A stretch of 64,000 bases of DNA. Origin: a virus. Positions 8,561 through 63,326 of this stretch are shown here, one piece after another. The position numbers and the translations under genes were made by a program. Every line of letters begins with the position of its first letter. Position 1 is the stretch's first letter. The stretch lies in IMG/VR virus record IMGVR_UViG_3300027798_006580; one strand, 5' to 3'. The notes beneath the pieces are model-generated. The model ran no database searches. It had not been told where the DNA came from and saw only the letters and a program-made list of their open reading frames with translations.

Positions 8561-9706
8561 ATGACAACTATTACCCACGCTCAAACTATTAACGGGCGTT
8601 ATCTAAAATCTACCAGCCACTTCGTTTCTTTACAACAACGTCTTGCAGATGCGCTGAAATCTTCTCCAGTATTTGTAAATATGCTGACTGCAATGGTTGA
8701 CGAGTATAAACGTCGACATGCCAGCTGGGCAAAGTTTTCCGACATGAAACTTTGTGAAGCAATCCAAGTTCCAATGGACAAAATCCTAATTGACAGTACT
8801 ATGCAACGTAGTTTGAATCTCCGCCACGTATTGAATATTCTACAGAACTTTAAAAGTAGTATGGTGATGGCAATTCAAGTGTATGTAGACGAAAACAAAC
8901 CTGGTTATTATATTGCATGGGAGGGTCAACATACTGCTATTGCTTTGCATATTATTCTAACAAAAGTATTTGGCGAGCAGACAGCTAACGCCATGATCCC
9001 AGTTGTGATTTACAATGTCAAACAGAAATTGGAAATTCGTCGTAACTTTATTTTGCTTAATGGCGATGCCAAGGAAGAACTAGACTTTATTGACAAGTAT
9101 ATCCAAATGGTATTTGGTGTTAAGATTGATAAGGCAGATGACCAAGAATGGATTGACACAGCCCTTAAGAATGACTACTTTGCCGCCGCAGGATTGTTTG
9201 CCACACATAGTAAGTTTGGGGATGAAGACCAACCAGGCGCATTCACTTTGTTAGCCGATACTCTTATGAGCAAGAGTTTGAAGACACGCAAGCATCCAGA
9301 GGTTACTCGTATGTTTGCACAGTATTGGAGTTTCTTAAATCAACAACGTCCCGTCGAGCCTAAAGAAGCTAGACAGTTATATGAGTACTTTAATTTGTGT
9401 TATGAACAAAAGATTGCAGTTGACGAAAAATATTTGCTAGAGTTTGTAGCATTTACCAAAGACAACTTTGAAGCAGACTTTAGTCCTACAAGTCCATTCT
9501 GGGACAAAGTTAAAGCGTCTTACGAATCGTGGTACGCTAAGGCTAATCCTGAATCATTTGCAGAGTTTGGCTTGAAAGGCTTTACTACAGAAATGCGTAC
9601 AGGTATTCCGTTTTTAATTGCACAACTTAAAAAGAGTACTAAATTAAAAGTGCCCGCATTTACTCCTAACAATGGCTTTACTATTAACAAAAAGGACTTG
9701 TGGTAA
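8561..9706 (+). CDS. ParB/Srx-like (DGQH-type) domain protein
   Basis: ID.TMQR.LN and AWEGQHT resemble ParB/DndB-type NTPase motifs. Confidence 0.55.
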   Translation: MTTITHAQTINGRYLKSTSHFVSLQQRLADALKSSPVFVNMLTAMVDEYKRRHASWAKFSDMKLCEAIQVPMDKILIDSTMQRSLNLRHVLNILQNFKSSMVMAIQVYVDENKPGYYIAWEGQHTAIALHIILTKVFGEQTANAMIPVVIYNVKQKLEIRRNFILLNGDAKEELDFIDKYIQMVFGVKIDKADDQEWIDTALKNDYFAAAGLFATHSKFGDEDQPGAFTLLADTLMSKSLKTRKHPEVTRMFAQYWSFLNQQRPVEPKEARQLYEYFNLCYEQKIAVDEKYLLEFVAFTKDNFEADFSPTSPFWDKVKASYESWYAKANPESFAEFGLKGFTTEMRTGIPFLIAQLKKSTKLKVPAFTPNNGFTINKKDLW

Positions 9707-9707
9707 T

Positions 9708-10160
9708 ATGACTACGTTTAGAAACTCTAACAAAGACAAGCTCAAAAGTCAGAGTATTCTCAAAGAACAGTATAGATTAGAATGTAAATGTAGATTGGAA
9801 GATTGTGATAATGATCTTACAATTTTTGATGGGCCAGGCAGCGATGGTTTCTGCCGTGAACATCAACTTCAACTTACAGACTATGAAGGCGGAATGGGAA
9901 AAGCAGATCGCCCACATACATTTTACAGAGGCTGGCTTTGTGAGAAGTGTGGATATGATCCAAGAGAAGATAGTCAGTTTGATGACATTGAAGATCCATT
10001 CCATAAACTTCGTTGTATGCGTGGCGTAATGCACGGAGATCATTTGGAACGTAAAAGTGACGGTGGCGCAGATACCGCAGAGAACATTCAAACTCTATGT
10101 TGTAGATGCCATATGATTAAAACATACAAAGAAAAGGATTACTTAAAAGGTAATAAATGA
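9708..10160 (+). CDS. HNH endonuclease-like Zn-binding protein
   Basis: CEKCG...GDHLERKSDGG....NIQTLCCRCH. Confidence 0.8.
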   Translation: MTTFRNSNKDKLKSQSILKEQYRLECKCRLEDCDNDLTIFDGPGSDGFCREHQLQLTDYEGGMGKADRPHTFYRGWLCEKCGYDPREDSQFDDIEDPFHKLRCMRGVMHGDHLERKSDGGADTAENIQTLCCRCHMIKTYKEKDYLKGNK

Positions 10161-60384: not shown

Positions 60385-60568
60385 AGTACGAGTGGATTGG
60401 CAAGCCGGAGACGATGTTCCCCTTTGGGATAAAAAATGTATCAGTGTGTTAGAACGTTTTGGATTGCCTGGCAACAAATACGAAACTCAACTTACTGAAG
60501 ATTATATGATTTTTCATTTCATCGATCCTGAAGATGCACTAGTAGCAAAGTTAATGCTGGGCGGTTAA
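60371..60568 (+). CDS. Small protein, F-x-L family
   Basis: FGLPG.KY...MIFHFIDPEDALVAKL. Confidence 0.6.
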   Translation: MYMTEVRVDWQAGDDVPLWDKKCISVLERFGLPGNKYETQLTEDYMIFHFIDPEDALVAKLMLGG

Positions 60569-61204
60569 TTCATTGACAAACTCTAACAAGAGATTGTGAT
60601 GATGTCCTTGATGCCAATATTCTTTAATATATTGTCTAGGCTCTTCATACCAGTACTGTTGACTCTCTGGATGGCATCCAATTACACCAATTCTGTTTTG
60701 TATGATAGCCATGGCATCTCCGTTGGCATAAGTGGCAACAGTTTTGAATTTACTAGTATCACCGACTAAGGCACATCCATCATAAAAGAACATTTTTTCT
60801 TGTTGGCCTTTCCAATTCACTGTGGCCACAGTTGAATAACTTCTACGAACATCTGCATTGGGTCTAGTGATATATTGTTTAGGTTCGACGCCGTCTAAAA
60901 TATCAAAGTAATTGCTACCTGCCCAATAAGCACCCATGCAAATTCCAAGATAGTATCCACCAGCGGCAACAAAGTCTGCTACTAGATTTTCCTTTTTTCG
61001 TTTAAAAAAGTTGTTATAACTTTCACTGTCCCCAATGCCTCCGGGAAAGGCTATGACGTCGGCGTTATCGAGCAAGTCTTGATTAAGTTCGTTTTCAGAG
61101 AATAAAGTGACATTATAATTATTACCCAGCGATTGTATGATTCCATCACAGCAGTCTTGCGAACATTCTGGATGATGCCTGAACAATACTATATTCTGCT
61201 TCAT
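60551..61204 (-). CDS. BPL_N / class I glutamine-amidotransferase-like protein
   Basis: FPGG.G, GG.YLGICMGAY, HPE. Confidence 0.8.
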   Translation of the reverse strand: MKQNIVLFRHHPECSQDCCDGIIQSLGNNYNVTLFSENELNQDLLDNADVIAFPGGIGDSESYNNFFKRKKENLVADFVAAGGYYLGICMGAYWAGSNYFDILDGVEPKQYITRPNADVRRSYSTVATVNWKGQQEKMFFYDGCALVGDTSKFKTVATYANGDAMAIIQNRIGVIGCHPESQQYWYEEPRQYIKEYWHQGHHHNLLLEFVNELTAQH

Positions 61205-61235: not shown

Positions 61236-61253
61236 CTGTAATCTTATTGTAAT
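61236..61253 (+). promoter_or_regulatory. Putative Pho box
   Basis: CTGTAAT-CTTA-TTGTAAT, 7-4-7 direct repeat with 11-bp period. Confidence 0.55.
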
Positions 61254-61316
61254 AGCATTTCTATTAAATATAACATCGCTGGTCAGCGGCGTATAATGTG
61301 ATAAATGGCTGACACT

Positions 61317-61341
61317 AAGAGCCCCATGGGCTCTTTTTTTA
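61317..61341 (+). terminator. Rho-independent terminator
   Basis: AAGAGCCC-CAT-GGGCTCTT followed by a T run. Confidence 0.75.
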
Positions 61342-61382
61342 TGGTTAACAGCGTTCTAATCGAATTTTGGTTAAATATTACT

Positions 61383-62174
61383 ATGACGACTAAAACATAT
61401 CGCAGTATTTTTATCAGTGACATACATTTAGGTACAAGAGATTGTAAAGCAGAAAAACTAAATAACTTTTTAAAACATAATACCTGCGATACCTTATATC
61501 TAGTGGGTGATATAATAGATGCATGGCGAATACAACAAAATAAATGGCGTTGGAAACAAAGTCATACCAATGTTGTTCGTAGAATACTAGGACATGCAAA
61601 AAGAGGCACACGAGTTATATATGTAGCAGGCAATCATGATGAATTTCTTAGACCAATGATACCCTATGGATTTAGCTTTGGATCAATTGAGATTTGTAAT
61701 CAAACAAATCACACCGGTGTGGATGGACTAAAATATCTTGTTGTTCATGGTGATTTGTTTGATGGTATTACAAGACTGGCACCTTGGTTATCATTTTTAG
61801 GAGACAGGGCATATGATTTCATTTTATCGCTTAATAGCAAGTTCAATTGGATACGCCATCGCTTTGGTTTTGGGTATTTTAGTCTTAGTAAATATCTCAA
61901 ACATAGAGTAAAAAAAGCCATAGACTTTATGTTCAAGTTCGAACAAAATCTTGCTGGCTATTGTAAGAAGCGTGGCTTTGACGGAGTTATTTGCGGACAT
62001 ATACATCACGCAGAAATCAAAGACATTGACGGGGTTAAATATATGAATGATGGTGACTGGGTCGAAAGTTGTACTGCTTTAGTAGAACATCACAGCGGTC
62101 ACTGGGAAATCATTACATGGACCAAGGAGAAAGACAATGTGGTTATTGATCCTATTAGCAATTCACAGCAATGA
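61383..62174 (+). CDS. LpxH-like metallophosphoesterase, PlcP (phospholipase C) type
   Basis: FISDIHLG, LVGDIID.W, W..SH..V, GNHD, HGD.FD, CGHIH, N.GDWVES. Confidence 0.85.
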   Translation: MTTKTYRSIFISDIHLGTRDCKAEKLNNFLKHNTCDTLYLVGDIIDAWRIQQNKWRWKQSHTNVVRRILGHAKRGTRVIYVAGNHDEFLRPMIPYGFSFGSIEICNQTNHTGVDGLKYLVVHGDLFDGITRLAPWLSFLGDRAYDFILSLNSKFNWIRHRFGFGYFSLSKYLKHRVKKAIDFMFKFEQNLAGYCKKRGFDGVICGHIHHAEIKDIDGVKYMNDGDWVESCTALVEHHSGHWEIITWTKEKDNVVIDPISNSQQ

Positions 62175-62307
62175 TCCAAAAGATGTTCCGGGACGAATAG
62201 AACTAACATTCCAAGATAAGGTATCCTGTGAACAAAGTTTACAAACTATGACTTATTGGTTAAAGTTTAATCAATTCAAAATTGAAGGAAGGTGTATAAA
62301 AAAATGA
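62137..62307 (+). CDS. 56-aa exported small protein (not in ORF track)
   Basis: AAGGAG RBS; MWLLILLAI..F....SC.....C. Confidence 0.55.
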   Translation: MWLLILLAIHSNDPKDVPGRIELTFQDKVSCEQSLQTMTYWLKFNQFKIEGRCIKK

Positions 62308-63014
62308 AAATCAGTGATAAAATTACCATTGTAGTACCCTGCAAGAATGAAGAAAACTACATCGCACATTTATTAGTGCATTTGCGCCAGCAATCAATTG
62401 GCAATACTAGAATTATCATTGCAGATTGTAGTACGGACAATACACGAGAAGTTATAGAAATAATGAAAGGCGAATTGAATGTTGAAGTCATCGACGGAGG
62501 CCCTGTGTCTTTGGCCAAGAACAATGGAGCCGCAATGGTCACTACTCCTTATATCTTATTCATCGATGCTGATGTTCGATTCTTCAAGGACTCAGTAATA
62601 CAAGACGCTGTTAATATTATCGAATCAAAGAATTTAGATTTAGTTGGATTGAAAATCAAATGTTATGATCGTGATCCAAGAGCCCATCTTGGATTCATTA
62701 TTTTTAATACTATAAACCATGCCATGAAGTATTTTTCACCTTTTGCAGTTGGAGCTTTCATGCTGACACGCAGAGACAGGTTTCAAGAATATGGCGGCTT
62801 CCCTGAAAACTTTTCAACCAGCGAAGACTACTTCTTGAGCCGCAAGTACAGCCCACGAAAGTTTAGAATTGTCCGACATCATTTTGGACAAGATAGTCGC
62901 AGGTTCAAGAAGATGGGTTATATGGGCATGGCCAAGTATCTTGTAAAAAACTTTGTCAACCGCAACAATAAAGCATACTGGGACAGTTTAGACTCTTCAA
63001 AATATTGGAGTTAA
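62304..63014 (+). CDS. Glycosyltransferase family 2
   Basis: IVVP.KNEE, D..STD.T, N.GA, FIDAD, GGF, ED. Confidence 0.88.
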   Translation: MKISDKITIVVPCKNEENYIAHLLVHLRQQSIGNTRIIIADCSTDNTREVIEIMKGELNVEVIDGGPVSLAKNNGAAMVTTPYILFIDADVRFFKDSVIQDAVNIIESKNLDLVGLKIKCYDRDPRAHLGFIIFNTINHAMKYFSPFAVGAFMLTRRDRFQEYGGFPENFSTSEDYFLSRKYSPRKFRIVRHHFGQDSRRFKKMGYMGMAKYLVKNFVNRNNKAYWDSLDSSKYWS

Positions 63015-63066
63015 TTGACACAAATTCATTTTGGTAATATAATACTATTTTACGAAAGGAAATAGT

Positions 63067-63268: not shown

Positions 63269-63326
63269 TAATTGACACAAATTGGGTTTGGCTTTATAAT
63301 ACATACATAGTAAACAAAAAGGAGTT
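63269..63326 (+). repeat. Early promoter/RBS repeat
   Basis: TAATTGACACAAATTGG..TATAATACATACATAG..AACAAAAAGGAGT, nearly identical to 4793-4851. Confidence 0.85.

Follow-up and report, generated by a model that had tools for sequence, protein, structure and literature searches.

A candidate phosphate-stress lipid-renovation module, pairing a PlcP-type phosphoesterase with a family 2 glycosyltransferase, in a large uncultured lake phage

Organization of the locus

In a 64,000-nucleotide stretch of viral DNA from the record IMGVR_UViG_3300027798_006580, hereafter the window, three adjoining genes on the plus strand encode a metallophosphoesterase (MPE), a protein of 56 amino acids and a glycosyltransferase of family 2 (GT2), a combination that is regarded here as a probable phage copy of the bacterial pathway for lipid renovation under phosphate stress. 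The MPE gene (61383..62174) lacks a Shine-Dalgarno sequence and encodes 263 amino acids of an LpxH-like enzyme of predicted PlcP type that matches Pfam Metallophos at 2e-12. Its last 38 nucleotides (nt) are overlapped by the open reading frame (ORF) of the 56-residue protein (62137..62307), whose stop codon shares the tetranucleotide ATGA with the start codon of the GT2 gene (62304..63014). The 236-residue GT2 matches PF00535 at 3.9e-19; it carries a DAD motif, and its basic C-terminal helix (RRFKK) is conserved. Upstream of the module, on the same strand, are a Pho-box-like direct repeat (61236..61253), a TAAATA hexamer resembling a -10 element (61265..61270), a stem-loop designated SL1 (61282..61313), an intrinsic terminator (61317..61341) and a second, decayed promoter adjoining the MPE gene (61354..61377). 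The 7-4-7 repeat, the terminator, TAAATA, the three genes and their ATGA coupling were each recovered where the original prediction had placed them.

Two other delimitations of the MPE frame were considered and rejected: a 289-residue frame starting at 61305, which is interrupted by stop codons in relatives, and a C-terminal run-on of 30 residues present in many database proteins, whose stop position varies while the overlapping 56-residue frame is conserved.

The source is a large uncultured lake phage, and the window (GC content approximately 38%) contains genes for a UvsX-like recombinase, a DnaB-like helicase and the alpha and beta subunits of ribonucleotide reductase, indicating a region of replication and nucleotide metabolism. 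The nearest record, G001, is 111 kb long at a rated completeness of 32%, corresponding to a genome of about 350 kb. A megablast search of the module region against cultured phages gave no match. Directly 3' of GT2, ahead of small ORFs, stand two perfect sigma-70 consensus promoters (TTGACA-17-TATAAT, at 63015-63043 and 63272-63300), on account of which the module is assigned to an early-type region.

Identity of the metallophosphoesterase

The relationship between the MPE and the two enzyme types that it could represent, LpxH and PlcP, can be judged from profile scores, phylogeny and gene neighborhood. Against the LpxH equivalogs of NCBIfam the protein scores 44.3 bits for NF003743, where the cut-off is 134, and 33.5 bits for TIGR01854, where it is 190. 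In a maximum-likelihood tree that included PlcP anchors and LpxH, the true LpxH proteins of E. coli, SAR86 and Aliikangiella split off with support of 100/100, while the MPE of the window falls within a clade of 14 phage rows (100/100) nested in a larger clade that also holds the Pseudomonas aeruginosa and Sinorhizobium meliloti anchors and the copies of the phage Mosig, of S-SRM01 and of SAR86. The SAR86 and Aliikangiella genomes each carry a true LpxH of about 281 bits together with a low-scoring paralogue, and it is this paralogue that is homologous to the MPE. The identification as LpxH was rejected on these scores and on the separate clade, and the earlier view of the protein as PlcP-like rather than LpxH is upheld. 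Among solved folds, LpxH is the nearest to the structural model (predicted local distance difference test, pLDDT, 81), which shares its helical lid at an identity of only 17-21%. The metal-binding motifs DxH, GDxxD, GNH(D/E), H and GHxH are invariant in an alignment of 35 sequences.

The named PlcP anchors, taken from PLSDB records, provide the link to enzymes of established function. The MPE is 55.6% identical to a P. aeruginosa homologue whose gene overlaps that of a family-1 (GT4) glycosyltransferase, with an adenylate cyclase-domain gene adjoining; this gene arrangement is that of the PA3219-PA3218 plcP-agt1 operon, which has been validated with mutants and enzyme assays (PMC8528852). It is 47% identical to the single homologue of S. 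meliloti, an anchor located on a 3.7-Mb replicon labelled pSymB. Homologues with 29-57% identity, mostly above 45%, are present in 109 of 301 sampled Alphaproteobacteria, a count that takes in one unpublished genome (G245) and on which none of the other conclusions depends. In Kordiimonas, a GT4 gene follows the MPE homologue, in agreement with the PlcP-Agt arrangement listed for that genus in Table S2 of PMC4796936. The assignment as a PlcP-type phospholipase C is thus well supported, with phospholipid hydrolysis predicted from orthology.

The glycosyltransferase partner

A search for GT2 in IMG/VR matched 384 contigs, several of them 345-353 kb long, and the locus counts given here refer to the best 80. 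In every informative locus among them, that is, wherever enough upstream sequence was available for the order to be judged, the MPE gene stands directly before GT2. The module of the original prediction, consisting of MPE, GT2 and the small ORF, is thus a conserved one. When the operon partner was examined with respect to phosphorus-free lipid synthesis (Agt, Pgt, BtaAB), a glycosyltransferase was found to be always adjacent, and it belongs to a GT2 family without a characterised member.

A GT2 orthologue was not found among the 301 Alphaproteobacteria, and among 301 Gammaproteobacteria it occurs only in SAR86, an order in which 2 of 121 genomes carry it, abutting the MPE homologue both times. 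At one of these loci (L017) the GT2-MPE pair is divergent from the gene for a PhoX alkaline phosphatase. The two genes flanking the SAR86 GT2-PlcP pair there encode PhoX and a methyltransferase resembling cyclopropane-fatty-acyl-phospholipid synthase (L017:5755-7101 and 8918-9970).

More distant relatives of GT2, with 29-41% identity, were recovered by profile search from lake, soil, peat and marine contigs, and in 36 of the 43 metagenome loci in which both flanks are available an MPE homologue adjoins, in either gene order. In these metagenome loci (L133-L206) the GT2 enzymes have 230-245 residues and nearly always adjoin an LpxH-like MPE; where GT2 precedes MPE, the latter is 35-45% identical to that of the window, and where MPE precedes GT2, the identity is about 25%.

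The GT2 model, with a pLDDT of 95.7, is a plain GT-A fold with generic matches in the PDB (TarS, PcManGT and TarP), and the protein also gives a weak match of 29.7 bits to Pfam Glyco_transf_21. The possibility that it is Agt, an enzyme of GT-B fold with the domains Glyco_transf_4 and Glycos_transf_1, was rejected, since the protein matches PF00535 and models as GT-A. A partner of the GT4 type accompanies PlcP in Kordiimonas and P. aeruginosa.

The 56-residue protein

The 56-residue ORF is a real, conserved, virus-only gene. It has 29 distinct homologues that differ by conservative substitutions and share a pattern of MW, a hydrophobic run, H, NP.D.PGR.E, CE, LKF, FK and C, which includes two conserved cysteines. 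The gene is present in about two-thirds of the phage loci; in the remaining third or so it is absent and MPE and GT2 abut. The MPE frame extends over the ORF by variable lengths. The ESM Atlas clusters of the protein are exclusively viral, with no function assigned. The original prediction had described it as an exported peptide, a description that finds no support: the N-terminus has a hydrophobic start of about nine residues but neither a charged n-region nor an AxA cleavage site.

Phosphate-linked promoter geometry

The repeat, CTGTAAT-CTTA-TTGTAAT, consists of two half-sites (61236-61242 and 61247-61253) with a period of 11 bp and agrees with CTGTCAT-N4-CTGTCAT at 11 of 14 positions. TAAATA follows exactly 11 nt downstream, at a fixed spacing that is kept across loci, and the arrangement as a whole has the geometry of a Pho promoter, in which two 7-bp repeats with a 4-bp spacer, about 10-11 bp upstream of the -10 element, take the place of the -35 element. 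The repeat alone, with up to two mismatches allowed, has four matches in the window against 1.55 expected, and is weak evidence because 6 of 100 shuffles reach the same count. When the 11-nt gap and TAAATA are required as well, the window yields a single composite against an expectation of 0.24, and the repeat as a general promoter of the phage was rejected on the basis of this single occurrence.

Upstream of MPE, many phage loci show the order nTGTAAy-N4-nTGTAAy, exactly 11 nt, TAAATA, 4-7 nt and ATG, a Shine-Dalgarno sequence being absent. Scanning 570 kb of phage loci yielded 49 composites, 31 of which lie just before MPE, distributed over 28 of 69 loci. Eighteen more, without exception on the same strand, comprise 12 from seven distinct loci that precede the phage pstS gene (L029, L032, L041/42, L044, L077, L086-type loci and L092), four before a coiled-coil gene of about 215 codons, one before a stem-loop unit and one before another gene. 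Since it precedes MPE in 28 of 69 loci and also precedes phage pstS, the composite is considered a Pho-type promoter, and Pho-type control at the level of the phage family is supported, with PhoB binding predicted. In 12 of the 80 phage loci the pstS gene itself is found no more than 4 kb from the module, and in the pelagiphage Mosig it is the divergent neighbor of the MPE gene.

Cellular PlcP genes are preceded by canonical CTGTCAy boxes, likewise with an 11-bp period. Repeats of the form TTTAAy/TGTAAC stand upstream of the native PlcP gene in two alphaproteobacteria whose genomes are AT-rich and about 1.2-1.4 Mb in size. No clear Pho box could be read in the SAR86 intergenic region between phoX and GT2. 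For cyanophages, control of pstS by the host PhoBR system has been established (PMC10976474).

In four of the phage loci, a coiled-coil protein of about 215-230 residues is encoded directly after GT2 behind a repeat and TAAATA composite of its own (L059:4743-5441, L079:4795-5451, L098:4802-5449 and L100:4309-4953), and is a candidate for a further member of the phage phosphate island.

Promoter state and neighboring elements in the window

The promoter closest to the MPE gene consists of the half-site TTCTAAT, 11 nt, TAAATA (61372-61377) and 5 nt to the ATG; it is recognized as decayed by comparison with L062, which has the full repeat at this gene-proximal position, and with L026 and L097, which have the half-site TTGTAAT. 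TAAATA located 5-9 nt before an ATG that lacks a Shine-Dalgarno sequence recurs at nine sites in the window, serving eight ORFs of at least 50 residues, against 0.5 sites expected: 15442(-), 15467/15471(+), which share one ATG, 33433(+), 45893(-), 45982(+), 54201(-), 61215(-) and 61372(+). The hexamer looks like a general phage promoter giving leaderless mRNAs.

Between the two promoters lies a conserved stem-loop unit. SL1 has a 6-bp stem, GTCAGC/GCTGAC, and a conserved 20-nt loop, and its pairing is supported by covariation: in 11 distinct copies, 100% of the 66 cells pair and five of the six pairs show compensatory changes, with slid controls reaching at most 59%. The terminator has an 8-bp GC-rich stem (hairpin 61317-61335) and a T run. 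The SL1 unit follows the pstS stop codon in L032 and the GT2 stop codon in five other loci, and Rfam contains no family for it. The window may accordingly hold a pstS promoter fused to the old pstS 3' end after a deletion, or it may encode a small RNA of about 65 nt (61277-61341).

On the minus strand at 60551..61204, a gene identified by its Pfam match as BPL_N-like, of the class-I glutamine-amidotransferase type and with GICMG and HPE motifs, is a loose neighbor of the module. About 17 of the 80 loci have such a gene no more than 4 kb from the module, in varied order and orientation; it is lacking in G001, where the boundary of the insertion or deletion falls exactly at the repeat. The ESM Atlas assigns no function to it, and a PDB sequence search returned nothing.

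Proposed mechanism

Taken together, the module is best explained as a phage copy of the bacterial phosphate-stress pathway of lipid renovation, a reading to which a probability of roughly 60% is assigned. In the proposed mechanism, the PlcP-type MPE would remove the phosphorylated head group of host phospholipids and leave diacylglycerol, as its orthology suggests. GT2, encoded on the transcript that also carries MPE and coupled through its start codon to the stop of the 56-residue frame, most likely glycosylates the released diacylglycerol, to judge from gene linkage. The resulting phosphorus-free glycolipid would refill the membrane, and host phosphatases would free the phosphate. The 56-residue protein could be an accessory without which the module can function; a role in anchoring GT2, which has no transmembrane segments, to the membrane is speculative. 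Across the phage family, the operon and pstS share a promoter geometry of the PhoB type and are probably induced by host PhoBR in phosphorus-starved cells, because a repeat separated by 11 nt from TAAATA corresponds to the geometry of a PhoB-activated promoter. In the window this control appears to have partly decayed, such that the intact promoter would feed only the stem-loop and terminator unit and the operon would stand behind a half-site and TAAATA. As for the lipid remodelling originally proposed, the PlcP step is well supported by the sequence comparisons, and the glycolipid backfill by GT2 is plausible from linkage.

A fuller version can be put forward only tentatively and is considered less probable than not: lipid renovation switched by host PhoB in large freshwater phages, with a previously unrecognised glycolipid synthase of GT2 type and its 56-residue partner, the pair occurring also in SAR86 and many soil and lake bacteria, plus an orphan promoter that makes a phosphate-stress small RNA of about 65 nt.

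Several points weigh against the preferred explanation, on both its enzymatic and its regulatory side. To our knowledge, no phage copy has been assigned an enzyme activity or a lipid product. GT2 is unrelated to the GT4 enzyme Agt, the fold search is generic, and diacylglycerol as the acceptor, suggested by gene linkage, is no more than plausible. Neither the window nor G001 was found to contain pstS. Some 11 nt beyond the intact composite (61236-61270) come the stem-loop and the strong terminator, without an intervening ORF, so that the terminator separates the box from the operon. In the gene-proximal copy the distal half-site is gone, and the remaining one carries a G to C change. TAAATA without a box also precedes seven other ORF starts at six other loci, including that of the divergent BPL_N-like gene. 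PhoB requires sigma-70, and the box-free occurrences imply that TAAATA may act as a phage promoter independent of that factor; the operon may thus be expressed here without PhoB. The half-sites read TGTAAy, not TGTCAy. Predicted phage Pho boxes, moreover, often fail in experiments (PMC10976474). In view of the terminator after the intact box, the mutated proximal half-site and the box-free TAAATA elsewhere, it is doubtful whether the operon is under Pho control in the phage of the window. The Pho box of the original prediction consequently stands as a conserved composite before MPE and pstS, but not as an assured switch at this locus.

Alternative explanations

Two alternatives concern what the enzymes do. 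The pair could serve phosphate scavenging only, with the MPE acting as PlcP and GT2 glycosylating some other lipid or envelope acceptor, for instance polyprenyl phosphate in the manner of the GT2 enzymes DPM1, GtrB and ArnC. Such a role would agree with the best TM-score of GT2 (0.72), obtained with the polyprenyl-phosphate-type mannosyltransferase PcManGT, with its DPM1-like size and lack of transmembrane segments, and with PHROG matches to GtrB-like O-antigen conversion families, although the PHROG and NCBIfam matches lie far below family level. GT2 and MPE remain very tightly paired over 29-99% identity, and the stop codon of one gene often overlaps the start codon of the other, which argues for consecutive steps on one substrate, and scavenging alone is considered unlikely. 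Still less probable, indeed improbable, is a role in envelope or receptor modification, in which the pair would alter lipid A, lipopolysaccharide (LPS) or another surface glycolipid, as a superinfection block or lysis aid, and the MPE would be an LpxH-like pyrophosphatase. The nearest solved fold of the MPE is LpxH, and virus surveys and a phage paper classify such genes as lpxH or LPS genes (PMC9611531, PMC13384950), but the protein falls short of the LpxH threshold and clusters with PlcPs of proven function, cells bearing the paralogue keep their own LpxH, and pstS and phoX are neighbors while no LPS genes were seen among the neighbors examined.

The other alternative concerns regulation and is a serious, if minority, possibility: the repeat may be not a PhoB site but the target of a phage-encoded or other OmpR-family regulator, or an upstream element of the phage TAAATA promoter, in which case expression would follow the phage programme and not phosphate. 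The deviating half-site and the box-free TAAATA before other window genes speak for it, and most of the loci may come from related phages of about 350 kb with one transcription system. On the other hand, only MPE, pstS and two other small units have the composite, which was counted 49 times in 570 kb, always on the same strand, and once in the window; similar repeats stand before PlcP in the two AT-rich alphaproteobacterial genomes, and the layout is identical to that of class II promoters dependent on PhoB.

Significance

Phage production in lakes and oceans is phosphorus-limited, and the known responses of phages are the uptake genes pstS and phoA. If lipid renovation is the true function of the module, it would represent a second phage strategy, in which host membrane phospholipid is used as a phosphorus store for phage DNA; by a rough estimate, the phosphorus in the phospholipids of one cell would suffice for several to tens of 350-kb genomes. 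With 384 IMG/VR contigs the module is common, but it is labelled 'lpxH' and 'cell wall glycosyltransferase', and surveys of auxiliary genes consequently misread it as LPS biosynthesis. In the literature, phage 'lpxH' was encountered only in KEGG-style lists of auxiliary genes, and no paper was found on a viral PlcP or on the module in a virus. The tight MPE-GT2 pairing in distant bacteria, in addition, points to an uncharacterised family of glycosyltransferases, for glycolipids or other lipids, that works with PlcP.

Comparison with known systems

The glycolipid synthases of GT2 type include Mycoplasma MG517 and cyanobacterial MgdA. Like the processive glycosyltransferase Pgt, these are enzymes of GT-A fold that glycosylate diacylglycerol, and they therefore provide a precedent for a GT2-type partner of PlcP; they differ in being larger and in having membrane segments. 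The placement of PlcP beside Pgt (the GT21 enzyme mlr5650 of Mesorhizobium) corresponds to types 3 and 5 of Sebastian et al. (PMC4796936).

The closest cellular system is the PlcP-Agt operon, represented by P. aeruginosa PA3219-PA3218, S. meliloti SMc00171, Phaeobacter MED193_17359 and SAR11 HTCC7211 PB7211_983/960. Phage module and operon have in common the PlcP clade, a glycosyltransferase directly downstream, an upstream direct-repeat box with an 11-bp period and the link to phosphate stress. They differ in that the cellular partner is a GT4 Agt of about 350 residues, whereas the phage has a GT2 of 236 residues, an intervening 56-residue protein and TGTAAy half-sites. LpxH shares the fold and supplies the best PDB matches, but is set apart by low identity, scores of 44 against 134 bits, the separate clade and its coexistence with the paralogue in SAR86 and Aliikangiella.

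Among phages, gene 120 of the Pelagibacter phage Mosig, annotated as a 'putative UDP-2,3-diacylglucosamine hydrolase', is 50% identical to the MPE, is overlapped at its 3' end by a small ORF over 38 nt and is divergent from the phage pstS; Mosig nevertheless has no GT2, and its 72-residue ORF is unrelated to the 56-residue protein. The regulatory parallel is provided by the phosphorus-stress genes pstS and phoA of cyanophages under host PhoBR (Zeng and Chisholm 2012, cited in PMC10976474); there too phage genes are preceded by Pho boxes of the host type, and in phages related to that of the window pstS forms part of the island that holds the module. The present system differs from them in that the genes concerned are a putative lipid-remodelling pair, the contigs are freshwater and not from cyanophages, and PhoB binding is predicted.

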